Origin: Dehalococcoidia bacterium
Lineage (GTDB): Bacteria; Chloroflexota; Dehalococcoidia; Lucifugimonadales; UBA3495
Length of the DNA stretch: 64,000 nucleotides
Reading direction: 5' to 3'
Assembly (NCBI GenBank): GCA_965261195.1
Contig: CBDHDC010000002.1
Location: 35,266-99,265, forward strand
A program made the position numbers and the translations under genes. A model generated the notes under the pieces. That model saw only the letters and a program-made list of their open reading frames with translations. It made no database searches and had not been told where the DNA came from. How positions within the stretch are numbered: position 1 is the stretch's first letter; every line of letters begins with the position of its first letter. This document shows, piece after piece, positions 7,525 through 35,494 of this stretch.

Positions 7525-7873
7525 CTAACTGACCCCGACCTGACCAAACTTCCGCCAGATATCGTGATAAACCCCGAGCAAAATTCCTGAAACTGAACAC
7601 TCTTTCCTGCGAATGTAGTTCGGACTTCGTTCGACAGACGGGCGAGTCAGGATGTCCACCGGCCTGCCGAACAGGTCCGAGAGTTCGCCAGCGATGCTCA
7701 ACAAAGCGCAGTCCCGGCGTCTGCCCCGGTTCGAATTCGACCAGGAGGTCGATATCGCTCTGGGGTCCGAAGTCGTCTCTGAGCGCCGAGCCGAAGACGG
7801 CAAGACTTGCAATGCCGTTGGCACGGCAGAATTCAGCCAGGCGGTCTCCTGGAAACAGTATGTTTTGGTTCAT
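7525..7873 (-). pseudogene. mntA: MNT-type nucleotidyltransferase antitoxin, frameshifted
   Basis: N-terminal LAVFGSALRDDFGPQSDIDLLVEFEPGQTPGL is in one frame. The expected continuation ALLSIAGELSDLFGRPVDILTRPSVERSPNYIRRKE is in another. Confidence 0.7.
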
Positions 7874-11789: not shown

Positions 11790-12252
11790 TATCTGTTGGT
11801 GGGGTCGGTTGTCGGACGGCTGAGGTCAAGGGCGGGGGCGTGGCTTTCGGGCGTGGGCGGCGCAGCGGGAAACGCCCCCGCCCTTGTCTGTGGGTGGGTC
11901 GTGGTGCTGGGATTCTTTCGAGCCGGATGAGGTCGGGATGAGCCAGGCGAAGCAGAGGGAGCGCAAGGAACGCAGGTAAAAGTATGGGGTCCATGGGGGG
12001 ACTTCGCCGGCAGTCCCGGGAGAGGGCACTGGCAGGGGCATTGGCGGCTTGCCGTCACACATCGAGATTCCGCGTCATACGATTCAGGTTCCTGGATCAG
12101 GACCGGGATCCGGCCGAAGGGTTTCTTGAGTTTGTGGACAAGCTGCAGAACGCGACCCCTGAAGAGGCCGAAGGCTGGGTTCGTGGTGAGGAGGAAAGTA
12201 CGGACAGTTGAGCGGAGAGAGAGAAGGTTGAAAAACCGTCTGAGTGTCCGTT

Positions 12253-12335
12253 CAGGGTTTTTGCGGGTGGGGTAGTGTCATGGGCAGGGTGCTGTCTTGA
12301 AAACGCTTCTCAGGCAATTCTGGGAGCAAATTCGG
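12253..12335 (+). repeat. 83-bp direct repeat E2
   Basis: The sequence is CAGGGTTTTTGCGGGTGGGGTAGTGTCATGGGCAGGGTG...GAAAACGCTTCTCAGGCAATTCTGGGAGCAAATTCGG. It lies immediately 3' of the 485-aa gene (stop at 12351). Confidence 0.75.
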
Positions 12336-12350
12336 GAACGGTAAAGCTCC

Positions 12351-13808
12351 TCACCAGGGGCGGAGCGGATCAAGGACTTCCGCGGGCCAGGTGATCTGGT
12401 AGGAAAACGGTTCGTCCTCGAAGGTCAGGTTTTTCCGGTCAGCCTCTTGGGTGGTGATGTGATTCCAGAGATCAAAGGTTTCAATGTCGAGATAGAGCGA
12501 TTCCGTAACGATGAGCAGAGCGCCTTCTTCGTCGTAGGAAGCATCGAAGTCAGGACCGCGTTCGAGGATGTTGAGTGCCTGCACGTCGTTCTTGTCGCGG
12601 GCCTGGGTGGTGAGGGTCACTTTGTCCAGGTGGGGTTGCGGCCGTTCATGGACAGCATCGAGGACGTAGACGTTCAGGTAATGGAGCCAGGTGTCGAAGG
12701 CTTGGTTTTGCAGGAAGTCGTTGTACTCGATCAGGGCGTCGGTCATGTCGTCGATGATCTTTTCAGGCTTGAGTACTCGTTCGGGGTCGGCGCTTGGTTC
12801 TCGGTTCAGGTAGTCGCCGATGGGAAAGATCGTTTCCGACTCGGGCAGGGTGTCGATCGTTCGGGCCAGCTGGTGGCAAGGGTTCCGGATGTCTCTGGCG
12901 ATGTGCCGCAGGCCCTGCCGGTTTTGCGGCAGGTCGAGGGCGGCCTGGCGCGCGAGGTAGTTCTGGCAGGAAGAATCCATCAGCGTGTATTCGTCTGGGT
13001 CCTGGATATCGTTCAGGGTTGTCATGAGGGGCAGGAAGTCGTGGGGCCAGATGAAGGTATGGGCGCGGCGAATGTCTTGCTGGTGGTGACGTCGGAAACG
13101 TTTGGCCATGCCGGGAACGTCGGCCAGCTGTTGGGTCGATATTTTCTCCCAGGCTTCGGGGTCGGTGATCTCTCCGGTGTCCGGGTCTTGCATGGCTTTG
13201 GAAAAGATGAACGCCGGCGGCTCTTCCCGGAAGACGACTCGCAAGACAACGTCGCCGTCTTCGATGCGGAGCGTGAAGTCAGGACCGTTTTCGAGAATCT
13301 GTTTCGGAGACTGGTGGGCGCCAACCAGGAAGTCGATTTGAATTTGTCCGAAAGGGTCGAGGCCGTGTTTGGCGTCGAGCGGGCTTTTGGGAATGTCTGA
13401 GAGGACCAGGGCTTCGGCGCGGTTGGCGGGGAGTTTGACCGCGGTGGGGTCAAGAACATGGGCGCGGACCAGGTAGTGAACGGCCAGGACCCAGAACACG
13501 TTTGCTTCCAAGGTGAGAAGACGGAAATAGGTGCTTGCCGCCATGGCCTGCTGGCAGGTCAGGTGTTGGCCTCTGGTTTCGGTCAGCAGGCTTTGGAGGG
13601 GAAAGAGCGGCTGGATGTGGTTGGGGATATCCAGGAGGCTGTGGACGATGGCCCGGAGGGGCTCGTCCACAGCCTCTTGCATTTGTACGAGGTCGTTGTG
13701 GTCTTTTGCGTATGGGTTGTCCAGAGTTTCCAGAAATCCGCCAAGGACGTCTTCGTCGAGGGTGGTGGTCCAGGGCTCGTTCGGCATGGCTGTCGGGTCT
13801 CCGCTCAT
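12351..13808 (-). CDS. ORFan protein, paralog A (485 aa)
   Basis: Long ORF that is collinear with the upstream 478-aa gene and roughly 55-60% identical by eye. Shared blocks include WEKISTQQLADVPG.AKRFRRHH, NTWLHYLNVYVLDAVHERPQPHLDK and TWPAEVLDPL. The start overlaps the paralog B stop (ATGA). Confidence 0.8.
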   Translation of the reverse strand: MSGDPTAMPNEPWTTTLDEDVLGGFLETLDNPYAKDHNDLVQMQEAVDEPLRAIVHSLLDIPNHIQPLFPLQSLLTETRGQHLTCQQAMAASTYFRLLTLEANVFWVLAVHYLVRAHVLDPTAVKLPANRAEALVLSDIPKSPLDAKHGLDPFGQIQIDFLVGAHQSPKQILENGPDFTLRIEDGDVVLRVVFREEPPAFIFSKAMQDPDTGEITDPEAWEKISTQQLADVPGMAKRFRRHHQQDIRRAHTFIWPHDFLPLMTTLNDIQDPDEYTLMDSSCQNYLARQAALDLPQNRQGLRHIARDIRNPCHQLARTIDTLPESETIFPIGDYLNREPSADPERVLKPEKIIDDMTDALIEYNDFLQNQAFDTWLHYLNVYVLDAVHERPQPHLDKVTLTTQARDKNDVQALNILERGPDFDASYDEEGALLIVTESLYLDIETFDLWNHITTQEADRKNLTFEDEPFSYQITWPAEVLDPLRPW

Positions 13809-15241: not shown

Positions 15242-15391
15242 GGCTGTCGGGTCTCCGCTTTCAGGTCATGTCAAGGAAGTCTTCGACCTCGCCCCATTCG
15301 ATCGGGGGCATGGTGCCGGTGGTCAGAAGTTTCAGATTACGGCTGGTGCTGGGGGCGTCGCGGGTCATGACCGTCGAATAGGTCTTGTTGG

Positions 15392-16399
15392 TTACGGGGT
15401 GGTCCATGTCGGGAGTGAGCAGATGGCAAGGAAGTCTTTGACGTTCTTCCATTCGGCCGGGGGCATGGCGCCAACGGCCAGAAGTTTCAGGTTGCGGCTC
15501 GTGCTGGGGGTATCACGGGTCACGACCGTCAGATAGATCTCGTTGGTTACAGGGTGGACCATGTCCGGAGCGAGCAGGCCGCAAAAGAGCGCTGTGGCTT
15601 CCTTGTAGGTGAGACCGAGGACCATGCCGGCGATATGTCTTGCTTGGTCGGGGTCGGTGTTGCTCAGGTGGTTTGTTACATGGTCCCCGAAACGGCTAAG
15701 GGTCCAGATGGCAAGGTTGCCGCCCCAGGAGCCATCGTTCATGACAAACGGCAAGCCTTGAGACGGGTCGAGAATGAGGGTCGAAAGGTGGCTGCGGAGG
15801 TCGCGGGGCGTCCAGAGCTCGTCGACGGCCTGGAAGTGGTTGTGGCTTGTGCTGGGGAGGTCTTTCACCATGTCTGCCAGTTCGAGCAGACGCTGGTTTC
15901 GAATGTTCAGGCTGACGTGGTTCCAGGCTTCAACCGGGCTTTGGCCGTCGGCGCAGGCTCTGAGAACGGACGCGGTGTGCTGCGGCGTTATGGCGTCGAA
16001 GCGTCCGAGAAGGCAGGCCGGGTTGAGAATCGGCGACAGGCTGGTGAGCAGGACGGTTCCGGCAGGTGGTTCAGGGAGGCCCAGAGCTTCAGCGGCGATC
16101 TTTGCGATGGCTTCCTGCGAAAGCGGCAGGGGGATGTCTTGTTCGCGGGCGGCAGTCAAGGCGGCCCAGGCTTCGAGATTGCCGCAGGTGTCGCCTTCCC
16201 AGGGAATCCAGGAAGGTTCGAAGTCGTTGTCGCGGACGTCGCCGGTCATGAAGAAGTGGTCGAGGTGGTCAAGGACTGGCTCAACGTCGGTGTGGTCGTG
16301 CTGGTTAAAAGCATTGTAGTAGCTGGCTTCGTGGTTGAGCTGGTAAGGCGGCAGGCCGTCCAGGATATTGGCCAGGCGGTTCAGGAAGGGGTTGTTCAT
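15392..16399 (-). CDS. ORFan protein (335 aa) with a duplicated C-terminal module
   Basis: Long ORF. The last ~45 aa (LLAPDMVHPVTNEIYLTVVTRDTPSTSRNLKLLAVGAMPPAEWKNVKDFL) are repeated out of frame just downstream (15261-15452: LLTPDMDHPVTNKTYSTVMTRDAPSTSRNLKLLTTGTMPPIEWGEVEDFL). Confidence 0.7.
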   Translation of the reverse strand: MNNPFLNRLANILDGLPPYQLNHEASYYNAFNQHDHTDVEPVLDHLDHFFMTGDVRDNDFEPSWIPWEGDTCGNLEAWAALTAAREQDIPLPLSQEAIAKIAAEALGLPEPPAGTVLLTSLSPILNPACLLGRFDAITPQHTASVLRACADGQSPVEAWNHVSLNIRNQRLLELADMVKDLPSTSHNHFQAVDELWTPRDLRSHLSTLILDPSQGLPFVMNDGSWGGNLAIWTLSRFGDHVTNHLSNTDPDQARHIAGMVLGLTYKEATALFCGLLAPDMVHPVTNEIYLTVVTRDTPSTSRNLKLLAVGAMPPAEWKNVKDFLAICSLPTWTTP

Positions 16400-20273: not shown

Positions 20274-22007
20274 TTGCAACTGGAGTCGATGCGAATGGTA
20301 GCACAGCCCCAACTGTTGTTCAACGATAACTCCTCTGCTTCAACACTCCCCACGATTGATTCCAGAATATCTCCTCAGTTCCTTTCTCAGCCTATCTTGT
20401 TTCAGGAGCCTGCCAGTCCGGTTGTCTTGCGTCTGGCGGCGTCAAATCTTTTTGAGAGTCCCAGGCCTGAACCGGACCCTGTTGTAGGGCGGTTGGAGGC
20501 TGATGTCGTCAAGTTGCCGGTGGGTACCCATTTTTGTCTGGTCTTTGAGTGCGGACCGGGCCCGGGTGGCTACCGTGCATTGGGGTCTGGTGTGATGGTC
20601 AAGGCTGCGACCTGGTTTCTGAGGACGGGTACGGAAGGGAAAACGCAGGTGGTATATGTCTTGCGGGACCGACGATTGTCGCAGGGGACTCAGAACGGCA
20701 TGGCGCTGAAGCGATTGCTGGCGTGGTACGGGGCTTGCCTGGAAGCTGAAGACAGCTATCTGGGCTGGGTGCGGCCGTTGGCGTTCAGGAACTTGTTGCC
20801 AATGCAGGTACAGTCAGGCCGTCAGGATGGTTACCGGTTTCTGGAGCTTTGTTCGGGGGTGCGAAAGGATCTTTCGGATTTGGAGCACCAGCGGTTCGCG
20901 GTGCTGGCCCGGTTTTTGTACGACCGCGGGGCGCACTTTGTACTGACGAACGGGGAGAAGCTTCCGGTCGGTGAAAGTGAGGGTGTGAAGGGGAAGGGCT
21001 GGCTCGAGCGGCGTCCGGCGCTGAGTGAGGTCCTGCGGCACCGGGAAGAAGGTGGTCTGTTGGGACTGGTTCCGTGGTCGGTGGGACTGTCGGTACTCGA
21101 TGTGGACGAAGGTTCGCCGGGTGAGTTGATGTCGGTCTTTCCGCCAGCTCTGATGCTGAAGTCGAGAACGTTGAGGCGTTACCACGTCTATTACCGGGAT
21201 GTGCGGCGACGGGGCAACGGCAACTGGGCGGGTTACAAGGCCGCTGGTCAGGTGCGGAGCGGTTCTGGCTTCGTGGTCTTGTGGCAGGGTCTGGGGGCAC
21301 TGGCCGGGATGTTGGCTGCTGGTGCGGGCGGCGTTCTGTTTCCGGAGTCCTCGGTGGTTTTGACGGTAGACAGGAGCAAGCGTTTCGGGCTGGCGTGGGA
21401 GCCTGCTATTACAGGGGGGTTGGCGCCTTGGGAAATGAGTCGGAGCACGGCCAACGGGGTGCTGTTCGAACAGTTGAGGCTGTGGGCTTACAGAGAGCGT
21501 CACAAGCCGCCGTTCCTGGACCTGTGGCTTGAGCGGGTGGCGGCGAAGGCACGGGAGCTGGCGGTAGACGCCGGGTTTCTGGGGTTGCTCAGTCCGCAAG
21601 ACGTGATGGGTATTGCCAGTAGCGTGGGGTCATGGGTGTGGGCCGAACACAGGGGGCAATCGGGAGAGGGCCGACGTCAGACCAACTCGGTGCAGCAGCG
21701 GAAGCGGGCGCTGGTCAGGTGGTATGGGTGTGAGGAGGCATCTGTGGTGGAGAACTTTGATATCCGTGATTACGAGATCGGCCGGCAAGCCGTCAAAGAC
21801 GGTCTGACGACGGCGCAGTTGGTCAAGGAGTACGGGTTACGGGAAAGGCAGATACGGCGGTTGGTCAAGCGATTTCGGGCCAGTCTGGAACCTGGGGGGC
21901 CGCAGTTGGTGGCTCCCTGGTGGACGAGGCCGGATCCGTTGGGGCCGGCAGGTGAGCTCTCGGTTTTTGACGAATTGCCCAAGCACAAGATGTTCAATGA
22001 GTTATGA
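20274..22007 (+). CDS. Prim-Pol / plasmid replicase-type protein with a PriCT-like C-terminal region (ATG alternative at 20289)
   Basis: Prim-Pol-like motifs are LSVLDVDEG (DxD), RRYHVYY and GQVRSGSGFVVLW. The PriCT-like region reads NGVLFEQLRLWAYRER...LERVAAKARELA...IASSVGSWVW. An AT-rich repeat region follows directly. Confidence 0.7.
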   Translation: MQLESMRMVAQPQLLFNDNSSASTLPTIDSRISPQFLSQPILFQEPASPVVLRLAASNLFESPRPEPDPVVGRLEADVVKLPVGTHFCLVFECGPGPGGYRALGSGVMVKAATWFLRTGTEGKTQVVYVLRDRRLSQGTQNGMALKRLLAWYGACLEAEDSYLGWVRPLAFRNLLPMQVQSGRQDGYRFLELCSGVRKDLSDLEHQRFAVLARFLYDRGAHFVLTNGEKLPVGESEGVKGKGWLERRPALSEVLRHREEGGLLGLVPWSVGLSVLDVDEGSPGELMSVFPPALMLKSRTLRRYHVYYRDVRRRGNGNWAGYKAAGQVRSGSGFVVLWQGLGALAGMLAAGAGGVLFPESSVVLTVDRSKRFGLAWEPAITGGLAPWEMSRSTANGVLFEQLRLWAYRERHKPPFLDLWLERVAAKARELAVDAGFLGLLSPQDVMGIASSVGSWVWAEHRGQSGEGRRQTNSVQQRKRALVRWYGCEEASVVENFDIRDYEIGRQAVKDGLTTAQLVKEYGLRERQIRRLVKRFRASLEPGGPQLVAPWWTRPDPLGPAGELSVFDELPKHKMFNEL

Positions 22008-22230
22008 GGATTGAAGGGTTTATGGCGTCTTGCTCGAACATTTCATAAAGTTCTGTAACGAGCTGTTTTTATGTATGTTTCGCAAATTTTGAAAGGTGAT
22101 TATCAAAATCGGTCATGCCGGTTTATCTTGGGTCTTCAATCTTCCTGACCGTATCTGTAAGGTATGGGGATTAAAACTGTACAGTTCTGGATAGTACTTA
22201 GCCCTTTTTAATTCTCCGCGGTTGAGAATA
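22008..22230. other. AT-rich ori-like region downstream of the replicase gene
   Basis: A marked local drop in GC (TTTCATAAAGTTCTGTAACGAGCTGTTTTTATGTATGTTTCGCAAATTTTGAAAGGTGATTATCAAAATC). The position matches origins of ColE2/Prim-Pol-type replicons. Confidence 0.4.
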
Positions 22231-22312
22231 CTTCAGGTGCAAGTCATCAGACCCGCCCCCGAGATTTCGGGCTCGCCCGAGTTCCCCCCCGCCTGCAAAG
22301 AGTCTTGTGTGT

Positions 22313-22534
22313 GCGTGCGCCTGCTTTGTCCTGCTTTGCTTTGCCCTGCCTTGCCTTTTTTTTGTTCCCGGCCGGGAGTTTCGTTGCCTGTGACGATTTG
22401 GAGCTTCGGCCGGTCCTGAGTCTCATGTTTGCGTGCGCCTGCTTTGTCCTGCTCTGCTTTGCCCTGCCTTGCCTTTTTTTTGTTCCCGGCCGGGAGTTTC
22501 GTTGCCTGTGGCGATTTGGAGCTTCGGCCGGTCC
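22313..22534. repeat. two 104-bp direct repeats (22313-22416 and 22431-22534)
   Basis: Near-identical units of GCGTGCGCCTGCTTTGTCCTGCT...TTGTTCCCGGCCGGGAGTTTCGTTGCCTGTG.CGATTTGGAGCTTCGGCCGGTCC, with a 118-bp period. Confidence 0.85.
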
Positions 22535-22670
22535 CGCCCTGTTTTTCAGCCTTTCAGGGGATTGATCCCCGCTTTTCAAAGGTTTTTACCTTCCTGCCGC
22601 ACCCCGAAGTCTGGAGCGTAGCGACGGACGTAGGGGTGCGGCACCAGTGAGCGAAGCGAACGGCTCGGGT

Positions 22671-22808
22671 GGGTCTATCCCCCTGCGTGCGGGGGAATGG
22701 GGTGCTGCGTGTCAACCGATCGACGGGTCTATCCCCGCGTGTCGCTGGTGTCTGGAGGGTCACGGGGGGCCTGGAAGGGGGTCTATCCCCGCGGGCTTGG
22801 GGTCAGTC
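22671..22808 (-). repeat. three type I-E-like CRISPR repeat fragments at a 54-bp period (degenerate; not a functional array)
   Basis: GGGTCTATCCCC occurs at 22671, 22725 and 22779. On the minus strand, unit 1 reads CCATTCCCCCGCACGCAGGGGGATAGACCC, compared with the E. coli I-E repeat GTGTTCCCCGCGCCAGCGGGGATAAACCG. Units 2 and 3 keep only the GCGGGGATAGACCC half. Confidence 0.4.
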
Positions 22809-22844
22809 GGTGGGACGGGGGGTGTCTTCCGGTTCTGGGGATGG

Positions 22845-23334
22845 AGAGTGTTGGGTTTCAGGAATAATGCCCGCTATTTGCCCTCAGATTGTCTGTAGCG
22901 GCTTTTTTGGGGCAAGGATGATGAATGATCCACGTCGGGGGGATAAATCCGTTCAAGGGCCGTTCAGGGGGTAAAAACGGCGCAGCCTGAGCCCTAGTTG
23001 TTCTCGAATTCGGGTGGCGGCGGATCACTGCAGCCGGGTGGCAACTGTACGTCGTGTGGTTGCCGGAACAGGATCATGCCGTAGCCGTAGAGTGTTGGGT
23101 TTCAGGAATAATGCCCGCTATTTGCCCTCAGATTGTCCGTAGCGGCTTTTTTGGGGCAAGGATGATGAATGATCCACGTCGGGGGGATAAATCCGTTCAA
23201 GGGCCGTTCAGGGGGCAAAAACAGCGCAGCCTGAGCCCTAGTTGTTCTCGAATTCGGGTGGCGGCGGATCGCTGCAGCCGGGTGGCAACTGTACGTCGTG
23301 TGGTTGCCGGAACAGGATCATGCCGTAGCCGTAG
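22845..23334. repeat. 244-bp tandem duplication (two units)
   Basis: 22845-23088 and 23089-23332 differ at only about 4 positions. Each unit holds a terminator-like hairpin plus T6 (GCCCGCTATTTGCCCTCAGATTGTC.GTAGCGGCTTTTTT), a CGGGGGGATAAATCC motif, and the last ~97 nt of the 23238-23633 ORF. Confidence 0.9.
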
Positions 23335-23633
23335 GCGCGGTGGCGTCCGATGCCGTTGGTGATGAGCTGCTCGAAGCGCTCGGGGTCTTCGACGATGAAG
23401 TTGCCGCGGCAGGTGACGTCGGGGCCGAGAATGGGCGGCGTGCCGAACTTGCGAACGACGGGCACCCGGCGGTAGCTGATGATGCTGAACGTGTAAGGCT
23501 CTAGAGAGGCGCCTTTTTGCTGGTGAAAGTGTCTGTGAAGCCAGCCGCCGTAGGCTTGGTGGCGGTTGTGGTTGGTTTCGGGGATGGTTTCGGGAGGGGA
23601 TTTTGGTTTGGAACGGGTTGGTGTGTGAAACAT
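23238..23633 (-). CDS. small protein with a Cas6e (CasE)-like C-terminal domain; possible cas6e relic
   Basis: CRGNFIVEDPERFEQLITNGIGRHRAYGYGMILF aligns with the CasE C-termini FEGVLTINDAPALIDLVQQGIGPAKSMGCGLLSL (E. coli) and FEGRLEVVDPERALATLRRGVGPGKALGLGLLSV (T. thermophilus). The N-terminal ~45 aa are low complexity, and the protein is only 131 aa versus ~200 for CasE. Confidence 0.45.
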   Translation of the reverse strand: MFHTPTRSKPKSPPETIPETNHNRHQAYGGWLHRHFHQQKGASLEPYTFSIISYRRVPVVRKFGTPPILGPDVTCRGNFIVEDPERFEQLITNGIGRHRAYGYGMILFRQPHDVQLPPGCSDPPPPEFENN

Positions 23634-23788
23634 GCCTTATGTTGGCCACGAGCGGAGCGGTGTTCTTGGCGATGCGTAAGCGAAGTGAGTGGCCAAAAGC
23701 GAACAGGAATGGGACTCTGTCCCTTCTGTTCCTCCTGTTCGCCTCTGTTCGGGTGATTTTCGATCAGTGATAACAAGGGTTTCCGGCC

Positions 23789-23876
23789 GTCATGTTGTAG
23801 GGGTAGATCGGTCATGTTGTAGGGGTAGATCGGTCATGTTGTAGAGGTAGATCGGTCATGTTGTAGGGGTAGACCG
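23789..23876. repeat. four tandem 22-bp iterons (oriV-like)
   Basis: GTCATGTTGTAGGGGTAGATCG occurs four times head to tail, with one substitution each in units 3 and 4. The array starts 52 bp beyond the 3' end of the putative rep gene. Confidence 0.85.
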
Positions 23877-23927
23877 CTGGGCCTAGATAGTTTTCTACAG
23901 AGATTTCCACAGGGCAGCTTCAGCAGA

Positions 23928-25844
23928 TCATGCGGCAGGCTGACCATCAGCCTTGTGCCTTATCTCGAGGATGCGCCAATAATCTTTGTCACACTCGATC
24001 ATGATACGTTTGGCCGATTCCAGGCGCCGAATCAACTTATCGGCGTTTTTGCGTTCATGCGAACGGTTGGCCTTGTCGGGCTGTTCCTTGAGGCCGTATG
24101 CCAGTCGGCGGCGTGCTTCGGGATGCAGAGCTGGCACCCTGTCGGCGTGGGGGTGGCGTTCTTCCCCTGCCAGTACCGCTTGCGGGTGGCGCCAATCCCG
24201 TTGCGGCGCATTGCCGGGCTTCCATAACAGCTTGCCTGCCTTGACGAACGGATTATTAGGATGGCCGAGGATGATGTTATCTTTCACATCGACCAAGTAC
24301 CCTTGCGCGTTCCGGAGGGCTTTCGGACGGGTGGCGTAGACGCGGAAGCCGCCGTTACGCGCCTTGGTGTCGTCCCACAGGTACGCCAGTGACAGCGATA
24401 AGTCGAAAGCCGGGTCGCTAAACCTGCCATCGGCTACCAGGCCGGGAAAGTACAAGGATGGGCCGCGATCAGATAAATCGGGGACCTCGAGCTGTATTAC
24501 CGCGCGACTGTCCAGGTCGCTGGGATTTGGCATACCACGAGCAACAACGGGGCGCCACGTTCGCCCGTCGGGAAGGCGAATTTTTGCCAGGGTGACGGCA
24601 TCGAAAGCAGCCTCAAGAGCCTTTGCATGCTTGTTGGGTCTCCAAGCGTCTTCGGCCCATAACAAATTGACCAATTGGCGCAGTGTCGGGCGCCACTCGT
24701 AACGGCCGCCGGGTCGTCGCTGCTCAAGAGGCATGGAGAGCAACGAGTAGATCAGTATCCGCTTGTCGAGGCGTGCGCCGCGACCGAGTTTCAGGGCACC
24801 GAAGCCGACCGCGCTAGCCAGGATCAGGGGCGTTACCGGGGGTAGGTCACTTTTCGTGTCTGCCGTCGGGAACAAGGCCAGTTGCAGCGATTCCGGTTCC
24901 TCGACATAGCCTGTCGTCGGCAAAAGCGCCGGGTCATACAGCGGCTCATCGACGTAAATGGCGGAAGGCGCCGCGTTGAGAAGGCCTTTGGGTACGATGC
25001 GGTCCTGTCTTGTCTCGGGTCTCAGGGCTTCGGGGCGCTGCTGCCACATCATTACCAATGGCACCAGTGGATGCATCGGCCGATCTTCACCGCTGCGTAG
25101 CCAAGCAGAATGCACGCTTTCGAGGTCAGCAATGCCCATGTTGTCGAAAGCGACATCACTTTCCAACATCTTGTCCACAGAGGCAATTAACCGACGGGGT
25201 AGTGAATCGGGTTGCCCGCTACCACTGACGAGCCATGTGGTGTGGCGTTTCCATATCGCCATGAGAAGCGTATCTGCTGCCGCGCGCGCGTCACTCGGAC
25301 ACTCGTTGTTGACCCAAGTCGCTAGCGTCTCCATGTTGGGTATCATGTCTGCTGGACTATTTGGCTGGATAAACCGCGCAACTGCTTCCAAAATTGCTGG
25401 CGTAGTACTGGCGTTTTCAAGAGAGCTGGATGGATGGACCATGTCTTTGGGCAGGGTCGCGGCCGGGGCCCGTCGGGTCTGTTTGTGTTTATTCGGCGAT
25501 TCGCCTGTCGGCGGCGCGGGAGGCCCTGCCTCTACCGGGGCCAGGTCCGTTTTTTTCAGTCCTTCGGGTAACCCATGCATCCAGTCGTCTTGAGTCTGCC
25601 GGTCACGGTGCTCATAGTAGTCAGGCGTACCGCTCGGATAAATAATGCGGCGTATCTCCCAATGCTTGTAACCTGCCTTGTTCGTCTTGCAAGCCGTGAT
25701 GGTGGGTTTCTTGTCCGTCGATCGATCTATTTCGGCGGGATCAACCCCTAAGTCTGCAGCCACGGTTTCCCGTGCACCCCGTCGAAGCATTTCGCTCAGA
25801 TCGATTGGCTCCATCATTCCACCTCTCTCGGGCTGTTGATCCAT
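23928..25844 (-). CDS. putative plasmid replication initiator (638 aa), assigned by context
   Basis: Large ORF between the parAG-like genes and the iteron array. I can name no motif confidently, so the function is inferred from position only. Confidence 0.45.
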   Translation of the reverse strand: MDQQPERGGMMEPIDLSEMLRRGARETVAADLGVDPAEIDRSTDKKPTITACKTNKAGYKHWEIRRIIYPSGTPDYYEHRDRQTQDDWMHGLPEGLKKTDLAPVEAGPPAPPTGESPNKHKQTRRAPAATLPKDMVHPSSSLENASTTPAILEAVARFIQPNSPADMIPNMETLATWVNNECPSDARAAADTLLMAIWKRHTTWLVSGSGQPDSLPRRLIASVDKMLESDVAFDNMGIADLESVHSAWLRSGEDRPMHPLVPLVMMWQQRPEALRPETRQDRIVPKGLLNAAPSAIYVDEPLYDPALLPTTGYVEEPESLQLALFPTADTKSDLPPVTPLILASAVGFGALKLGRGARLDKRILIYSLLSMPLEQRRPGGRYEWRPTLRQLVNLLWAEDAWRPNKHAKALEAAFDAVTLAKIRLPDGRTWRPVVARGMPNPSDLDSRAVIQLEVPDLSDRGPSLYFPGLVADGRFSDPAFDLSLSLAYLWDDTKARNGGFRVYATRPKALRNAQGYLVDVKDNIILGHPNNPFVKAGKLLWKPGNAPQRDWRHPQAVLAGEERHPHADRVPALHPEARRRLAYGLKEQPDKANRSHERKNADKLIRRLESAKRIMIECDKDYWRILEIRHKADGQPAA

Positions 25845-25917: not shown

Positions 25918-26175
25918 CTATCCTGCTATCCGCTCTTGATACTCGCTCCACATGGCGATGAACAGGTCGGATTTCGAGCCTTTCTTGAATCCGAACCGCT
26001 CGCCTGCCTCTTTTGCGAAGTCGTCGAGGATGTGTTCAGGTACCGAGAACTCGATTTTTGCCTTCTTGGTCGGTTTTTCGCGCGGTGGTGTTTTCAGGTT
26101 CGAATTTGTAACGTCCGGCGTGGGCGGCGTGCCTTTACCGGTGCGTCTGGGTTTCAATTTTGCCACGTCAACCAT
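25918..26175 (-). CDS. ParG/RHH-like partition adaptor (85 aa)
   Basis: Small basic protein directly downstream of parA, overlapping it by 1 nt. The C-terminal IEFSVPEHILDDFAKEAGERFGFKKGSKSDLFIAMWSEY is RHH-like. Confidence 0.55.
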   Translation of the reverse strand: MVDVAKLKPRRTGKGTPPTPDVTNSNLKTPPREKPTKKAKIEFSVPEHILDDFAKEAGERFGFKKGSKSDLFIAMWSEYQERIAG

Positions 26176-26828
26176 TACGCCACCTCTCTTTCAGCGGCAG
26201 TCGCGACGGCATCAATAATGCTTTGCGCCATGGCGTCGGCTCGCTTGCGCAGTGTGGGAAATGAGGTTTCGGTGATGGCCTTTCCTTGATCCATGGCCGT
26301 CTTGAAGGCCGCACGGAATGGAATCTCGCCGTCCAGCACCGTGTATGGGGTTTGCCCAAGGTACTCCCGCGCACCGGCGATCTCTCGTGCTGAGTCCGAG
26401 GTGATGCAAAGGGCAAAGGCTACTTTGTTGGCCGGTATCCCCGCTTTCAGCAGATTGTTGGCGAGAAGCACGGAGGGCTGGAGATCGTCTAAGCCTTCGC
26501 TTGTGGGGATGATGACCATATCAGCAGCCCCACAGGCCGCTTGTGTTTCCACGGACGAATGCGGGGCGCCGTCGAAGATATAGAGGTCAAAGTTCTGGGC
26601 GTCCTGTAGGGCCGTGTCGACCGAGCGGAAGGCCTCGGCGCGTATCGGCGGCTCCAAGCCGTTTGCCGCCCTTCTCGCGGCCCAACTGACGCTCGTCGTC
26701 TGTTGTGTGTCTAGATCGGCGATTTTGGTCTGCAGTCCGCCTTTCGTGGCCTCAACGGCTACTATCCGTGCAAGCGTCGATTTCCCCACCCCGCCTTTCT
26801 GCGCGACCATGGCGATTTTGTAGGTCAT
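26175..26828 (-). CDS. parA: ParA/Soj-type partition ATPase
   Basis: MTYKIAMVAQKGGVGKSTLA carries the deviant Walker A. The likely start is the ATG at 26828; the ORF track starts at 26849. Confidence 0.9.
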   Translation of the reverse strand: MTYKIAMVAQKGGVGKSTLARIVAVEATKGGLQTKIADLDTQQTTSVSWAARRAANGLEPPIRAEAFRSVDTALQDAQNFDLYIFDGAPHSSVETQAACGAADMVIIPTSEGLDDLQPSVLLANNLLKAGIPANKVAFALCITSDSAREIAGAREYLGQTPYTVLDGEIPFRAAFKTAMDQGKAITETSFPTLRKRADAMAQSIIDAVATAAEREVA

Positions 26829-26846
26829 GGCATGTCTCCCTGCTGT

Positions 26847-26890
26847 CATGTTATCCTGCTAACTGGCTATTATGATAGCAGGATAACATG
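26847..26890. promoter_or_regulatory. palindromic operator / centromere-like site upstream of parA
   Basis: CATGTTATCCTGCTA-N14-TAGCAGGATAACATG is a perfect 15-bp inverted repeat. Related ATCCTGCTA/TAGCAGGA motifs occur at 26903-26915 and 25901-25932. Confidence 0.65.
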
Positions 26891-27550: not shown

Positions 27551-28174
27551 ATGGGCAGTATGGCCGACAAGGTCATGAAACGGGTTGCCGCACATCACCG
27601 CGGACGGTGGGTGTGCTCGCCGAAGGACTTCCTGGACTTGGGAAGCCGGGAGGCCGTTGACCAAACCCTGTTACGCCTCGTCAAGGCGGGGCGGCTGCGC
27701 CGGGTTGGTCGCGGCCTTTACGACATGCCTAGGTTCAGCAAGGTGCTGAAACGTGCAGCGCCGGTCGACCTGGAAGCGGCCATTGCGGCGCTGGCCCGGC
27801 GCGACGGTATCCGGATCATGCCGGACGGCTTGGTGGCTGCCAATCAGTTGGGTCTCACGAACGCGGTGCCCGCGAAGGTCAGCTTTGTGACCGATGGCCA
27901 TTCTAGAACGCTCAAGATCGGCGGCCGCACGGTCCGATTCCGACATGCAGGACCAAGCGTCATGCAGTGGGCGGGGAAACCGGCGGCTCCAGTGGTTCAG
28001 GCCCTGAGGTGGCTTGGCCCCGACGCCGCTACTGACGCGCGGGTCGTTTCGACTTTGAGTCGTCAGCTCCCGGAGCATGTGAAGCGCGATCTGGTGCAGA
28101 ACGAGCGCAATTTGCCCGGTTGGGTGCTGCCGCTTGCGCGCAACATCACGAATAGCCAGGCCGTTGCCACATGA
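27551..28174 (+). CDS. abiEi: AbiEi-type (DUF6088-like) antitoxin / transcriptional regulator
   Basis: FLDLGSREAVDQTLLRLVKAGRLRRVGRGLYDMP is winged-helix-like. The gene overlaps the downstream nucleotidyltransferase gene by 4 nt. Confidence 0.8.
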   Translation: MGSMADKVMKRVAAHHRGRWVCSPKDFLDLGSREAVDQTLLRLVKAGRLRRVGRGLYDMPRFSKVLKRAAPVDLEAAIAALARRDGIRIMPDGLVAANQLGLTNAVPAKVSFVTDGHSRTLKIGGRTVRFRHAGPSVMQWAGKPAAPVVQALRWLGPDAATDARVVSTLSRQLPEHVKRDLVQNERNLPGWVLPLARNITNSQAVAT

Positions 28175-29214
28175 ATGGAGATTTCGAATCCTTTCTCTCC
28201 CTTTCGACACAAGACCGGCGGGACGTCTTCGAAGCGACGGCGAGCCGCCTCGACACGTTACCCCGTTATGTGGAAAAGGACTTTTGGGTCTGTCTCGTCC
28301 TCGACGTACTCTACAACCGACTGCCTGACCGGCACCTAAAACTGCTCTTCAAGGGCGGCACGTCACTGTCCAAGGCATTCGGACTGATTGAGCGGTTTTC
28401 CGAAGACATCGACCTCGTGGTCAACCGAAATGATCTGGGCTTCGAGGGGGAACGGGATCCGACTGTCGCCAGCAATCTGTCCAACAAGAAACGCGGGGCT
28501 CTGTTCGAGGAATTGCGGGCGGCGTGTAGCGGCTACATTCGCGGCGAATTCAGAACCGCCCTGACCCAACAGATTGACGAGATCGCCGAGGGGTGCCGCA
28601 TCGGTCCAGAGGAAGGTGATGTGGATGGACAGACCCTCTTCATCCAGTACCCCACCCTGTATCCGAGCGGCGATATCGCCTATGTGGCGCCGCGCGTGAA
28701 GATTGAGGCGGGGGCTAGGTCAGCACTCCACCCGAGCTCGACCTGTTCCTTATCTCCCTACATCGCCGGTGAGTTGCCCGATTGGTCGTTCGACGTGGGT
28801 GGCATCAGTGTGATCGCGCCGGAGCGTACCTATTGGGAGAAGCTACTCATTCTGCATGGCGTGTACTGCGGGTACAGGGACGAAGAACGCCTGCCGGCCG
28901 ACAGGAACCGAATCTCGCGCCACTACTACGACGTCTCGATGATTACGGCAACCGATGTTGGCAGGTCTGCCTTATCCGATATGGACCTGCTGGACGCAGT
29001 CCGGGATCACAACCTCATTGCCTTCCGGCAGGCCTGGAAGCGGTTCGAAGAGGCCGTCCCCGGATTGGTGAGACTGGTTCCGCAGGCGTACCTGCGTACA
29101 GTGATCGAGCGGGATTACCGAGCGATGCAGGGCATGATCCTCGGTGACGTGCCCGATTTCGAATGGATCATGGAACAGCTTGAGTGGGCCGAAGCCACGA
29201 TCAACGAGAACTGA
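28171..29214 (+). CDS. abiEii: AbiEii/AbiGii-family nucleotidyltransferase toxin
   Basis: The translation contains LLFKGGTSLSKAFGLIERFSEDIDLVV and YWEKLLILHG...RHYYDV, typical of the family. Confidence 0.85.
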   Translation: MNGDFESFLSLSTQDRRDVFEATASRLDTLPRYVEKDFWVCLVLDVLYNRLPDRHLKLLFKGGTSLSKAFGLIERFSEDIDLVVNRNDLGFEGERDPTVASNLSNKKRGALFEELRAACSGYIRGEFRTALTQQIDEIAEGCRIGPEEGDVDGQTLFIQYPTLYPSGDIAYVAPRVKIEAGARSALHPSSTCSLSPYIAGELPDWSFDVGGISVIAPERTYWEKLLILHGVYCGYRDEERLPADRNRISRHYYDVSMITATDVGRSALSDMDLLDAVRDHNLIAFRQAWKRFEEAVPGLVRLVPQAYLRTVIERDYRAMQGMILGDVPDFEWIMEQLEWAEATINEN

Positions 29215-31560: not shown

Positions 31561-33237
31561 GTGAGACGGAAAATCGTGCCAATCGTGGACCTGTTTTCGG
31601 GTCCGGGCGGTCTCGGAGAGGGATTCTCCGCATATCGGAGCCCGGGTGACCGACGCAGATACCGCGCAGCCTTGTCCATCGAAAAGGATCCTTCTGCGTA
31701 TCGTACGCTGCGGCTGCGTGCCTTCCTGCGCAAGTTCAGGGCAGGCTTCCCTCCAGAATACTACGATTTTCTGAATGGCGTGATCCCGAAGGAGCCCGAC
31801 TGGGCGAAGCTTTATCCCAAGCACTGGACTGCTGCCTGCGACGAGACCCGGTGCCTGGAACTGGGGACGTCCTCTGCCAGTACCTTCCTGGAGCAGCGGA
31901 TCGCACGAATCCGGACAGAGCACGAGGGACGGACCGTGCTGCTCGGGGGCCCGCCGTGCCAGGTCTATTCCGTGGCGGGCAGATCCCGAAATTCCGGCAA
32001 GATCGGATACGATGCCGACGAGGACGATCGCCAGTTGCTCTACGAACCTTACGTGCAGGTGCTCTCTCAGCTTCAGCCGGCGATTGCCGTCATGGAGAAC
32101 GTCAAGGGGATGCTCTCCGCGCGGCGGAACGGAAGACTGATCTTTCCGGAAGTGATGCGTAAGCTCCGGCATGCGGGCAGCATCAATGCGTATCAGCTGT
32201 TTGCGCTTGCTCCCCCCTCGGGGATCTGTTCCTGGGACGAGGCATCGAAGCCGAGGGACTTCCTTGTGCATGCAGAGGAGCACAGCGTGCCGCAAGCCCG
32301 CCATCGCGTTTTCGTCATCTGTGTGCGACGCGATGTTGCTGAAGCGCTTCCGGAAGAATGTCTGCCGCGACTCGATCGACAGGATGGCACGGTTTCGGTT
32401 CGTGACATCATCAGTGCCATGCCGAAGCTTCGCAGTCGCCTCAGTCAGAATGACGATCCCGGCTCGTGGCAGGACGCCGTGCGATCGGTCTGCGAACTGA
32501 TCCTCGCGCATCGGCCGATGATGTCCCAGGATGAGGAAAGACGGTTCCGGATGGCTCTTGGCCGTGCCTTGCTCACTGCCAAGGGGGCCGCGCCGCCGTG
32601 GCGGGAAGCACGTGGCGGGCTTGCCTTGCCTTCCGGTTGTCCTGCAGACCTCCGCGACTGGATATCCGACGAGAAGATCGAGGTGCTGCCCAACAATGAG
32701 ACGAGAAGGCATATCCCCGCCGATCTCGCCCGCTACCTGTTCGCCGCGGCGTTCGTTCGCGCCTTCGGGCGATCTCCGAAGACCCCGGATTTTCCCGAGG
32801 CGCTGATGCCGGACCACGCGAACTGGAGCACGGGGATGTTCGACGACCGCTATCGGGTGCAGCTTCTCGATGGGCCGTCCACGACGGTCACGAGTCACCT
32901 CTCAAAGGACGGCCACTATTTCATTCATCCCGACCCGGCTCAGTGCCGGAGCTTTACCGTGCGGGAGGCGGCACGCCTTCAGACCTTTCCGGACAACTAC
33001 CTTTTCCACGGCAGTCGCACGCAGCAGTACATTCAGGTGGGCAATGCAGTCCCGCCTTTTCTCGCTTGGCAGATTGCCCGGGCTGTCTGGGGCATCATTG
33101 ACCATCATGATCATATCGCGGCACGTACGCGACCACGCGTTCGGCCCTCTCTGGGCAGACAGCCCGTCGTCGCATTGCACAGACCACTCGACCGCCAAAA
33201 TACCAAGGGCGACTTCTGCGCAACAGGGAAAGCCTGA
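31561..33237 (+). CDS. dcm: DNA (cytosine-5)-methyltransferase (GTG start inferred)
   Basis: Motif I is [15 protein letters not shown], motif IV is GGPPCQVYS, then MENVKGM, and motif X is QTFPDNYLF...QVGNAVPP. Confidence 0.9.
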
Positions 33238-33238
33238 C

Positions 33239-35494
33239 ATGGAGATGCGGAGAGAAGCGAATGCAAGAAACAGTTCAGATCGTCTAGACAAGAAGTATCT
33301 GAGGCCTGCATTCAGAATGGCCGTCCTCAATGGTGCTGTGGAATCGGTCCGTTTGCATCTTCGTGCTGGGGAAGATGTTAATGCGGTTGACGAAAAAGGC
33401 CGTTCCCCCTTGATGCTTGCCGCATCCAAAGGACGTGTCGATATTTGCGGTCTGCTGTTGGCCGAGGGAGCCGATCCTGCACTTAGAGACAATGGCGGGA
33501 ACGATGCCCTTATCTTGGCTCTTGGCCAAGGCCGAACTGAGATTGCAACACTTCTTTCCAATGCTTGTGCGGCAGTCGAAGGGCCATTGCAGCACAATGC
33601 CGGAAATGACGACGATCAGGCCCTCAGGCGATACCAGACTTCTTCTCACCCAGATCAAAATGACGGGATGGGGACTGCGAACGAGACGGTCCTTTGCGAT
33701 CAAGGTTTTTTCGCTGCTGGACATGGCATCCCAGAAGACAAAGCATTTGGAAAATGCCAAGTTCCGGGGTCCCGCTATTGGCGGGACACGAACGAACTGC
33801 TTGACCTCTCCGCTTGGGAGGAGGAAACCGACGGGCCTCCCCCGACGAATGACCTGTCATGCGCCAAGGAGGCGACAGACCTTCAAACTCGGATCTCCGA
33901 TCACACCCCGATCGACACGGACGAAGGTTGGGAAGAGGTCACGGTGGACCTTCCCGATCTGGATGACCTTTTACGCCGTCACATTCCGCTGAGTCCGCAG
34001 GATGAGCAATCGCTCCGGACACTGGTTCTTGAGGGATTAAGGGATAAACACATACGGAACGAAAGAATTATCTCTGCGCTTCCCGTGGAAACTGAGGATG
34101 ACGCATCCGTCGGAGAGGACCTAGGGGGTTGCCTGCGGCTGGTCCTTGGCGACCTTGGCGTCGTGGTCGATGATGACCCCTTCGCACTGGAAACCTTCAT
34201 CCATGCCGACGAGGATGAAGAAAGGTTTGGGGACCAAGTCAGCGAAGCGCTTGCGTTTCTCGGTCAGCTTTGGGCGAACCAGGTCAATCCTTTCGCTCTC
34301 TACTGCAAGGAGCTAGGGGTTGACCTTCTGACGCGGGAAGACGAAACAGCGCTAGGAATGGCCATGGAGGCGGGAAAAATTGATGTGCTGACGGGCTTGG
34401 CCAGGAGTCCGGCGACAAGATCAAGACTGCTTGCCGATGTGACAGGTGTACTGAGCGGTGACACTCCAGTGCGTAGCATATTCGCTGTGGGCAGGGGGGG
34501 CGAGAGCTCTGACAACGAGGCCAGGAGCGCCGAAGTCCAGAACGAGGATGATCAAGTAGACGGTGTGTTTACTTCCGAAGCGGGCAACCCATCGCTGCTT
34601 GAGGATATTTCGAGACCTTTGAAGATGATAATGAATTGTTGCCTGCAGGCTGAGCCGGATGTGGCCAAGCTTGCGGATCATCTTCTGGAGGCAGAGCCTG
34701 AACCAGGATATTTCATGGAACTAAGGCGGATTGCCGAACAGGATCCGCTGTGCGGAGATGCAAGGCAGAGGATCAAGTCAGGACTCGAAAAAGCTGAAAC
34801 CGCAAAAAAACGTCTTGTGGAAGCCAATCTCAGGCTTGTGATCTGGGTTGCAAGGAAGCACGGTGGCTTGCCCCTCATGGACAGGATACAGGAAGGCAAC
34901 ATAGGCCTTATAAGGGCTGCCGAGCGATTCGACTACAGGCGCGGCACAAAATTTTCCACTTTCGCTGTCTGGTGGATCCGCCAAGTGATCAATCGCGCAG
35001 TTGATGACCAAGCAAGAATTATCCGCCTCCCGGTGCATGTGCAGGAAAACTCTCGCAAGGTCGAAAGGGCTGAAGCACAGGTATATTCCGAAACTGGACG
35101 TGAGCGGGATATCCATCGAATCGCCAGTGTCACGCAATTACCTTTGGACCGGGTGGAGAGACTTCTGGATGTCCCGGACGAACCAATTCCGATGGAAGAC
35201 GCATGGGACAAGGTTGTGCGTCTCGCTGACGAAGCCATCTCAGCACCGGAAGAAATCCTGGCCATTTCTGAAATGCCAGCCTTTGTAAGAAGCTACTTGG
35301 ATTGTCTGGATGAAAGAGAGAAGGACATCATCTGCCGGAGGTTCGGCATGGGTTGCGATGAACAGACGCTTGAGGAGATCGGACAGTTCTATGACCTCAC
35401 GCGGGAACGCATCCGCCAGATTGAATCCAAGGCATTGGAAAAGCTCGCCCATCCCGGTCGCATCAATCAGTTGCGGGATCTCTGGCAATCATGA
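33239..35494 (+). CDS. ankyrin-repeat / sigma-70 (RpoD-like) fusion protein, 751 aa
   Basis: The N-terminus has ~4 ANK repeats ([51 protein letters not shown]). An acidic linker follows, then region 1.2-like [20 protein letters not shown]. Region 2 reads [61 protein letters not shown], and region 4 reads [25 protein letters not shown]. The ATG is 1 nt after the dcm stop. Confidence 0.85.

Follow-up and report, generated by a model that had tools for sequence, protein, structure and literature searches.

Orphan and incomplete CRISPR-cas loci are already known from plasmids, on which 207 orphan arrays and 106 orphan cas loci have been counted and discussed as possible decay products or as users in trans of the host's Cas proteins (Pinilla-Redondo et al. 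2021, PMC9071438). Plasmids also harbor candidate RNA anti-CRISPRs (Racrs), solitary repeat units that have been validated for type I-E (Camara-Wilpert et al. 2023, PMC10651486), and regulatory mini-arrays are noted to originate by truncation of arrays, the copies carried by phages being shortened in their spacers (Shmakov et al. 2023, PMC10120712). The region described here, positions 22,671 to 23,633 of a 64-kb stretch of DNA from a Dehalococcoidia bacterium (contig CBDHDC010000002.1; the whole stretch is referred to below as the window), belongs with the orphan plasmid loci and is, in that sense, an ordinary kind of finding. With a probability of roughly 80%, we read it as the inactive relic of a type I-E CRISPR-Cas locus next to the replication origin of a plasmid-like element of ~105 kb, in which the 3' part of a cas6e gene is followed by the eroded end of a repeat array. 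Its parts are as follows, related loci being distinguished by L numbers.

23238..23633, minus strand: 5'-truncated cas6e, an open reading frame (ORF) of 131 amino acids (aa), recognized by its Pfam match and by 90.7% identity to aa174-291 of the sister Cas6e (tblastn).
22997..23089, minus strand: isolated second copy of the last 31 cas6e codons (aa261-291; 96.8% in tblastn), a product of the 244-bp tandem duplication.
22845-23088 and 23089-23332, no strand: the 244-bp tandem duplication, with 98% identical copies made up of the cas6e 3' end and a ~150-bp recurrent element.
22780..22795, minus strand: R1', the 3' 16 nt of an I-E repeat (CCCGCGGGGATAGACC) with the 5' stem arm deleted, an exact match to the 3' parts of repeats in L001 and L004.
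22744..22779, minus strand: pseudo-spacer (~36 nt) between R1' and R2', with a gene fragment at 22744-22776.
22726..22743, minus strand: R2', the 3' ~18 nt of an I-E repeat (GACACGCGGGGATAGACC) without the 5' stem arm, found by repeat search and forming no repeat hairpin when folded.
22700..22725, minus strand: spA, a 26-nt spacer-like segment (CGTCGATCGGTTGACACGCAGCACCC), recognized by comparison with related elements.
22671..22700, minus strand: R3, the sole complete repeat, a variant (CATTCCCCCGCACGCAGGGGGATAGACC; sequence CCATTCCCCCGCACGCAGGGGGATAGACCC) that is also present in L016, L017, and L019.
22640..22666, minus strand: start of the conserved array trailer, joined to R3, a 100% match to L001 8905-8931 with a deletion relative to L001.

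Plasmid-borne type IV-A3 systems use a Cas6e-like nuclease together with I-E-like repeats, and CreTA/CreR modules are grouped with the regulatory mini-arrays, or cr-like RNAs, of type I systems. Our region resembles type IV-A3 in its plasmid location, its Cas6e-family protein and its I-E-type repeats, but there is no csf or dinG among the window's large ORFs, and the gene upstream of the sister cas6e is a cas5e fragment. With the regulatory mini-arrays and cr-like RNAs it shares the succession of degenerate repeat, shortened spacer, and second repeat, whereas no partial target with seed and protospacer adjacent motif (PAM) was found, no Cascade operon adjoins it, and the unit has been lost in several relatives. 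The Racrs likewise present, on a mobile element, a hairpin imitating the CRISPR repeat of the host type; here, in contrast, no directly upstream promoter was detected, the hairpin carries mutations, and the unit, instead of having been inserted by itself, demonstrably forms the end of an eroded array. No acr genes were recognized, and the genes of the surrounding module (Rep, ParA, AbiE, and a helix-turn-helix (HTH) protein) are not acr-related, a comparison that excludes small neighboring ORFs. The plasmid orphan loci (PMC9071438) match our region in their short array and solitary cas remnant without an adaptation module, and what sets our case apart from them is that the decay series can be traced over about a dozen elements and that the relic adjoins the iterons of a replicon absent from PLSDB.

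The preliminary description had proposed a Cas6e-like ORF of 131 aa on the minus strand that lacks the N-terminal half of CasE, and both points are supported by a Pfam profile search. PF08798 (CRISPR_assoc; Cas6e/Cse3/CasE) matches the ORF with E=2e-15, its 58.1 bits lying well above the gathering score of 25, and the match extends over profile positions 122-221 of 223 (ORF residues 14-108), the C-terminal 45% of the profile only. The NCBIfam equivalog model TIGR01907 (casE_Cse3) reaches 35.5 bits, which is under its cutoff of 45.2 because only half of the Cas6e protein is present. Both profiles had been suggested for checking the ORF, and the Cas6e match to PF08798 is significant. An alignment to CasE "residue for residue" stands at the level of this profile but not in direct comparison with phmmer against PDB sequences, in which the best match among solved Cas6e structures is T. 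fusca Cse3 (5u07_A, E=0.13, residues 66-107 only) and the E. coli and T. thermophilus Cas6e structure sequences give no match to the ORF. The full-length sister protein also finds weak or no matches by this route, and its fold was recovered by structure search. Relative to Cas6e proteins at large (PF08798, TIGR01907; 2Y9H, 3QRP, 4DZD), the C-terminal beta-hairpin, helix, and glycine-rich loop (GIGRHRAYGYG) encoded in the window fit the profile, and GIGRHRAYGYGM aligns with the invariant columns G254, G256-R259, and Y261-M265, RNA binding being predicted only. The ORF was said to end at ...GMILF, beyond which it in fact continues for 23 residues (RQPHDVQLPPGCSDPPPPEFENN) as a proline-rich C-terminal tail, and it differs further from the family in comprising residues 174-291 only and in representing a divergent plasmid lineage, which has 34-41% identity to typical chromosomal Cas6e.

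The point of truncation can be placed with some precision. Cas6e homology runs from 23594 to 23241 on the minus strand and corresponds to residues 174-291 of the 291-aa sister protein, while the first ~13 codons of the ORF have an origin other than Cas6e. When the full-length sister Cas6e was used as a tblastn query, its N-terminal 60% had no other match across the 64-kb window, and homology upstream of 23594, which would be a sign of a longer decayed gene, was not significant (best E=0.13). An AlphaFold model of sister protein P0007 (predicted local distance difference test, pLDDT, 86.3; predicted template modeling score, pTM, 0.82) matches RNA-bound T. thermophilus Cse3 (2y9h, E=3.8e-13, TM 0.70) and E. 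coli Cas6e in a fold search, consistent with a two-RRM (RNA recognition motif) fold that retains the conserved His motif. In this model, the N-terminal RRM occupies residues 23-116 and strand beta-1' of the C-terminal RRM residues 128-135, and residue 174 comes after strands E128-135, E138-140, and E156-158 and helix H159-167. The window fragment begins only after beta-1' and therefore falls short of a complete domain: judged by the predicted structure, window cas6e is missing the N-terminal RRM together with the catalytic region, and from the C-terminal RRM it is missing the first strand (beta-1') and the elements next to it. Profile, tblastn, and sister model likewise reveal no pair of tandem RRM (ferredoxin-like) domains in the 131-aa ORF, and a family alignment finds no counterpart in it to the invariant H51, which lies in the motif DxDHAMHCLLTE that the sister 291-aa Cas6e has in common with chromosomal Cas6e. 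The 131-aa product cannot act as an endoribonuclease, and it is unlikely to fold as a domain.

Related elements preserve earlier stages of this locus. The first protein search with the 131-aa ORF returned six relatives, all with the same order of AbiE, ParA, an 85-aa gene, a 628/638-aa Rep, the cas6e piece, the HTH protein, and an integrase. A full-length 291-aa Cas6e (Pfam positions 21-221 of 223) is encoded in L004-L007 and L016-L019, and directly upstream of it lies a Cas5e fragment (PF09704) that matches the C-terminal 100-150 residues of chromosomal I-E Cas5 with 41-43% identity (E=5e-17 to 2e-26). The sister elements therefore carry the tail of an I-E operon, cas5e'-cas6e. Outside the plasmid family, the nearest full-length Cas6e (54% identity) adjoins a full cas5, and the closest full Cas6e relatives sit in I-E operons, full operons being found only in chromosomal or other contigs (L002, L009, and L014); a scan of JGI metagenomes with the full-length Cas6e found no relatives. 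The truncated form is itself subject to further damage, with an additional 1-nt deletion that causes a frameshift in L001, and in L004-L007 the fragment breaks off at residue ~70 or ~92, where it is joined to cas5e sequence. Positions 13,831-77,830 are those that the window takes up on the contig ctg57189_6x_c (L023; ENA ERZ25068833; 104,692 bp), which is 100% identical to window 22000-24000. In one 343,746-bp contig (ENA ERZ25071132, ctg818495_23x_l), two cas5e'-cas6e backbone blocks (L007 and L017) lie ~225 kb apart and carry different replicon modules, one of the Rep628 type and one of the RepA_C type; these elements may be integrated, cointegrated, or mis-assembled.

On the same strand, downstream of the truncated gene, the 12-mer GGGGATAGACCC (GGGTCTATCCCC on the plus strand) occurs exactly at 22671, 22725, and 22779, with a spacing of 54 + 54 bp. 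A given 12-mer is expected ~0.008 times per 64 kb on both strands and three copies were observed within 120 bp; their recurrence is therefore not due to chance. The preliminary description was right about three copies at an exact 54-bp period, but only two of the three read GCGGGGATAGACCC, the copy in the complete repeat reading AGGGGGATAGACCC; two of the periodic units are identical over 15 nt. In sequence, the window repeats belong to the I-E family, whose repeats are 28-29 nt long and have a GC stem and a 3' end ...GGGGATAAACC. The window does not show the regular row of complete repeats, one every ~61 bp and separated by unique spacers of 32-33 nt, that makes up an I-E array; it holds one complete and two partial repeats. 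As had been claimed, the complete repeat R3 forms a stem-loop (22700..22671 on the minus strand, -12.2 kcal/mol), in which two substitutions in the 3' stem arm shift the register to 6 bp with a 7-nt loop versus 6 bp with a 4-nt loop in the canonical repeat (GGUUCCCCCGCACGCGCGGGGAUAGACC). Around R1', four predicted C-G pairs are no better than those of shuffled sequence (z = -1.5). Compared with the repeat of arrays that flank I-E operons, R3 matches at 24 of 27 positions, and R1' and R2' agree with it over the whole of their final 14 nt (CGCGGGGATAGACC). The segments between the repeats measure 26 nt and ~36 nt, not the 25 nt of the apparent spacers reported earlier. Within the longer of the two, 22744-22776 is the 3' end piece of an unrelated 268-aa gene that is intact in L004 (ORF 11857-12663); 33 nt match L001 8330-8362 (94%), and an exact 17-mer lies within the L004 ORF. 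On the strength of these matches, the segment is a gene piece rather than an acquired spacer.

The best-preserved counterpart of the array is found in L001 (also L013), a 67,146-bp contig whose name flags it as circular. Its cas6e piece is followed on the same strand by eight repeats (CAATTCCCCCGCACGCGCGGGGATA(A/G)ACC), of which three, upstream, are degenerate, and the last four have a 61-bp period with three unique 33-nt spacers between them. Window 22870-22640 (minus strand) is collinear with L001 7832-8931 minus ~5 blocks, beginning with the 5' flank of R1' (window 22795-22870, L001 7832-7907), and the ends of these ~5 deletions fall inside repeats, as recombination between repeats predicts. 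The equal 54-bp spacing is a by-product of the deletions and not a designed period. Among the relatives, the array is present as 0, 2, 3, or 8 repeat units with spacings of 49, 54, 56, 61, or 204 bp: none remain in L006/L007 and L022, R3 is missing in L018, and L004/L005 have two units at 49 bp.

The proposed comparison with repeats of the host gave a clear positive answer at the level of candidate host groups. An exact 26-mer core (TTCCCCCGCACGCGCGGGGATA(A/G)ACC) is present in six genome records, namely three chromosomes of Dehalococcoidia metagenome-assembled genomes (MAGs), two Alphaproteobacteria MAGs, and the L001 contig, which is itself deposited within a Dehalococcoidia MAG; the Dehalococcoidia MAG arrays with this core include some of more than 80 repeats. 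The arrays of these records have the consensus GGTTCCCCCGCACGCGCGGGGATAGACC and a period of 61 bp, and toward the trailer, just as in L001, ...GATAAACC variants occur. In L009, such an array follows a complete cse1-cse2-cas7-cas5-cas6e-cas1-cas2 operon, and since the core is identical to that of these arrays, it can be taken as a genuine I-E repeat of hosts that are plausible for the plasmid. Between the plasmid Cas6e and the chromosomal Cas6e of the candidate hosts, identity is only 33-41%. For a plasmid family without PLSDB relatives, a repeat identical to those of Dehalococcoidia and Alphaproteobacteria MAG I-E arrays offers a clue to the host.

No further cas gene was found in the window. 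Pfam searches of 33 large window ORFs identified none, six I-E Cas proteins used as tblastn queries (Cse1, Cse2, Cas7, Cas5, Cas1, and Cas2) had no counterpart there, and the Cas1 and Cas2 of L009 had no significant match in the window or the sister elements. The 8.2 kb past the right end of the window on the source contig contain no cas genes either. In place of the I-E operon context next to cas5e, which is lacking in the window, the truncated cas6e has iterons and a replication gene upstream of it.

23789..23873, no strand: Rep iterons, 3.9 copies of the 22-mer GTCATGTTGTAGGGGTAGATCG, found by repeat analysis and unrelated to the CRISPR repeat.
23928..25844, minus strand: 638-aa replication-type protein with no Pfam family and no PLSDB relative, placed by synteny in a ParA/85-aa/Rep module.

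PLSDB has no match to window 22200-24000 (megablast) or to Rep (tblastn), and the Rep-like/ParA/577-aa module appears to represent an undescribed plasmid replicon family. ParA is encoded at 26175-26849 (minus strand), and the conserved 577-aa protein, whose sole match is a C-terminal HTH, at 20274-22007 (plus strand).

Judging from the sister elements and the L001 array, the ancestral element would have carried at least ...cas5e-cas6e-(intergenic elements)-CRISPR array, and deletions, tandem duplications, insertions of insertion sequence (IS) elements, and recombination between related elements would have eroded this locus to a different degree in each relative. The window cas6e has lost everything upstream of residue ~174, and ~5 deletions have cut the array down to one complete, stem-mutated repeat and the 3' 16-18 nt of two others. 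The homology, the truncation point, the collinearity with an intact array, the match of the repeat to chromosomal I-E arrays, and the lack of other cas genes in the window are shown by these comparisons, and both the loss of function and the order of the rearrangements are inferred from them. The earlier suggestion of a decayed I-E locus, with cas6e followed by repeats and cas1-cas2 missing, is thereby borne out by the cas5e fragment beside the sister cas6e and by the 61-bp-period array of L001. The present function of the region is most likely none, and in annotation it would best be labeled as a cas6e pseudogene and a degenerate I-E array, not as a CRISPR-Cas system or a new small protein. 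The about a dozen related elements give an unusually complete picture of CRISPR-Cas erosion on plasmids, the visible steps being deletion from one repeat to another, duplication in tandem, insertion of IS elements, and the swapping of replicon modules.

Several observations weigh against an inactive relic. Six contigs from at least 3 samples carry the 131-aa ORF intact and in identical form, and when the window is compared with L003, the ratio of nonsynonymous to synonymous substitution rates (dN/dS) for this truncated ORF is 0.30. For the sister full-length cas6e, the ratio is 0.15-0.20 (p 1e-5 to 2.5e-8) without Cascade genes in the examined flanks, from which the module may have been useful until recently. 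R1'-R2'-spA-R3 recurs ~97% identical, with a variant hairpin, beside a different replicon module in L019, and spA adjoins repeats in nearly all related elements that still have repeats, being degenerate and repeat-less in L006/L007. The search for cas genes, moreover, covered the 64-kb window and the 8.2 kb beyond its right end, all but ~32 kb of the 104,692-bp contig.

The substitution ratios have to be considered in the context of the different divergence of neighboring genes. Between the window and L003, dS is 0.55 for the cas6e fragment versus 0.089 for the adjacent Rep and 0.058 for ParA, and since the value for the fragment is ~6 times that of Rep, the cas6e piece and the replicon module have different histories, that is, a mosaic origin. 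We rejected the low dN/dS as proof of selection on the truncated ORF because of this mosaic origin and because the ratio can derive from full-length ancestors; the leader start codon and reading frame also differ between the window and L003 as a result of an 85-bp deletion. The truncated cas5e piece, with dN/dS of 0.17-0.34 and very few substitutions, failed as a neutral control, and the result for the full-length cas6e is therefore only suggestive. Among 1.84 billion representatives there is no coherent clade of half-length Cas6e, and the ORF aligns to the C-termini of ordinary Cas6e proteins of 220-280 aa.

If spA were a functional spacer, a target might be expected, and the earlier note had suggested comparing the inter-repeat segments with phage and plasmid sequences. 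The comparison yielded no credible protospacer for spA and the three L001 spacers in IMG/VR (allowing every sixth base to vary), PLSDB, and INPHARED (blastn), or for spA in JGI metagenomes, the only matches in these searches being to Sinorhizobium (27/30 nt, E=0.4). No target with seed and PAM for spA was found in any of the sequences compared, and in the opposite direction, 121 spacers of the chromosomal arrays L008-L012 have only chance matches of ≤17 nt in the window and sister elements. Ten nucleotides of the L001 variant of spA, ATCAGTTGAC, recur within L002 1191-1206, where they overlap the -35 box of a promoter (TTGACA-17-TAATAT) situated between cas3 and cas8e in a genuine I-E operon of the same sample series. 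The match involves spacer positions 7-16, which are outside the seed, and has no PAM; with about 0.26 such 10-mer matches expected in each locus, the eight loci examined gave four, and we note this match only as a lead. A promoter and terminator scan gave nothing informative for the array, the single promoter-like site lying within the ORF start, and an Rfam scan of 22000-24000 found nothing relevant, only anti-hemB at E=0.42.

The preliminary description had left room for a co-opted mini-protein, a crRNA decoy, or a solitary repeat unit, none of which gained positive support, and we keep them as rivals of low probability. Even taken together, the residual roles in question (a cr-like RNA, a decoy RNA, a fragment that binds the hairpin) are improbable. 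One version would make R2'-spA-R3 a functional mini-array or solitary-repeat RNA, acting as a cr-like regulatory RNA or an RNA anti-CRISPR: a minus-strand transcript could be bound by the host's Cas6e and Cascade through a 5'-handle AUAGACC and the R3 hairpin and could either titrate host Cas proteins or guide Cascade by its 26-nt spacer to a partly matching host promoter, shielding the plasmid. The arrangement of a degenerate 3'-only repeat, a shortened conserved spacer, and a complete repeat is that of the published examples (PMC10120712, PMC10651486), the repeats match I-E arrays of candidate hosts, spA is kept in most relatives, and the same arrangement stands on another replicon backbone in L016 and L017 as well as L019 (RepA_C, another ParA, and RES-Xre). 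The ~97% conservation, however, is no greater than that of the flanking trailer and may only reflect recent shared ancestry, and the relatives that have lost R3 or all repeats have lost the proposed unit with them. R2' is without a hairpin, so that Cas6e could not generate a 5' handle there, and the R3 stem is shifted in register. The overlap with the L002 -35 box is a non-seed match without PAM at chance frequency, no seed-plus-PAM target was found in the compared sequences, and no sigma-70-like promoter was found upstream, although the sigma-70 pattern may not be that of the host. With no protospacer in the databases searched either, we consider a functional mini-array quite unlikely. Much the same low credence attaches to the broader idea that the delta-cas5e/cas6e/R2'-spA-R3 block is a portable counter-defense or hijacking module and not debris. 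In that case, the plasmids would bring a Cas6e of their own and a minimal cr-like RNA with a conserved but short spacer (26-28 nt), and the RNA would load into the host's I-E Cascade and repress a target or soak up Cas proteins; the window copy, having lost the nuclease, may rely on the host's Cas6e or use its C-terminal fragment as a hairpin-binding decoy. The occurrence on two replicon backbones, the dN/dS of the sister cas6e, and the retention of spA are consistent with such a module, and none of them is decisive. If true, this minority reading would make the region one more plasmid case in which a repeat or Cas6 interferes with the type I-E immunity of the host.

For the 131-aa protein itself, a function as a catalytically dead but hairpin-binding mini-Cas6e is less probable still. 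Its beta-hairpin and glycine-rich loop would serve as a decoy or dominant-negative against crRNA maturation in the host or as an RNA-binding factor for plasmid functions by the origin. The intact and identical ORF argues in favor of it, as do the stretch aa56-108, which spans the beta-hairpin and loop and is the most conserved against L003 (5 nonsynonymous and 8 synonymous differences, dN/dS 0.18), and the position of truncated cas6e next to the iterons in all relatives with Rep of the 638/628 type. Against it stand the incomplete domain that begins past beta-1', the changed leader start and frame relative to L003, the frameshift in L001, the fragments of L004-L007 fused to cas5e, the mosaic origin that explains the low dN/dS, and the absence of a half-length clade. 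Least credible of all is that the three 54-bp-spaced GGGTCTATCCCCGCG units are DNA sites for a plasmid protein (iterons or partition sites) phased at about five helical turns, which would account for their exact spacing, for the 15 nt shared by two of them, and for their location between the Rep module and the gene of the 577-aa HTH protein. By homology, the units correspond to the 3' part of the I-E CRISPR repeat, whereas the Rep iterons form a separate 22-mer array, and L006, whose Rep has 0 synonymous and 2 nonsynonymous differences, has no such units, other relatives with near-identical Rep having none or spacings of 49, 56, 61, or 204 bp. We therefore rejected iterons as the identity of the 54-bp units, which are CRISPR-derived and vary in number (0, 2, or 8 repeats) and spacing among plasmids with near-identical Rep; Rep-binding iterons, named earlier as one finding that would speak against a decayed I-E locus, are thus a different sequence. 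Accepting the inactive I-E relic as the best explanation, the remaining features of the region and its surroundings can be described against that background.

The 244-bp duplication at 22845-23332, correctly recognized from the outset, is confined to the window and its identical source contig among the compared sequences and is present as a single copy in L001 and L004-L007. In L003, a second isolated fragment of the cas6e 3' end with the glycine-rich loop (7047-7169) lies ~3 kb downstream of the first truncated copy and has 49% amino acid and 83% nucleotide identity to window 23298-23366; independent duplications of the cas6e 3' end have therefore taken place in two elements or more. Two opposite-orientation GGGGATAAATCC motifs within the duplication (22939-22950 and 23183-23194) do exist as reported, but we rejected their interpretation as repeat fragments and regard them as chance resemblances: at two mismatches, GGGGATAAATCC has 11 matches in the window versus 4.9 expected, and the motif is not kept among paralogous copies of the ~150-bp element that hosts it. 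A further tandem duplication, of 118 bp, lies at 22300-22534 (copies 95-96% identical) and contains short repeats of the CTTTGCC type, a T8 run, and the palindrome TCCCGGCCGGGA; its unit is present once in L001, L006, and L007 and apparently more than once in L022. Taken together, the 118-bp and 244-bp duplications indicate that the origin-proximal region is prone to tandem duplication.

The ~150-bp recurrent element has copies at 22845-22996 and 23089-23240 in the window, at 7705-7860 and 7905-8060 in L001, at 5270-5425, 5435-5590, and 7215-7370 in L003, and at 10874-11030 in L019. It is marked by the blocks CCGTTTTTGCC.CCTGAA.GGC ... GCCGCTACAGGC ... GGGCATTATTCCTGAAACC, and diverged copies follow several different genes. 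It has no conserved consensus RNA structure (-2.5 kcal/mol) and may be a promoter or the boundary of a regulatory cassette.

Elsewhere in the window, the element is rich in defense genes, with AbiEi/AbiEii at 27551-29214, a four-gene cluster of HATPase_c_3, Z1, DUF4420, and AIPR at 35491-42622, a 1634-aa type ISP restriction-modification enzyme at 47020-51924, and an AAA_21/SMC_N ATPase at 56191-57870. In an 874-aa protein at 32870-35494 (plus strand), an unusual fusion joins ankyrin repeats to sigma-70 regions 2, 3, and 4, and an IS605 OrfB/TnpB-like protein at 4142-5236 (minus strand) has an OrfB_IS605 domain and a Cas12f1-like TNB domain. A protein with a ProQ/FinO domain is encoded at 2407-3252 (plus strand); this domain is typical of Proteobacteria and is odd beside the assignment of a related contig to a Dehalococcoidia MAG. 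Two more repeats complete the picture, a 155-bp repeat in two copies at 15268-15577 and a 102-bp tandem repeat of 5.6 copies (88% identical) at 53382-53955, which lies inside the gene of a 428-aa TPR-repeat protein (53244-54530, minus strand).

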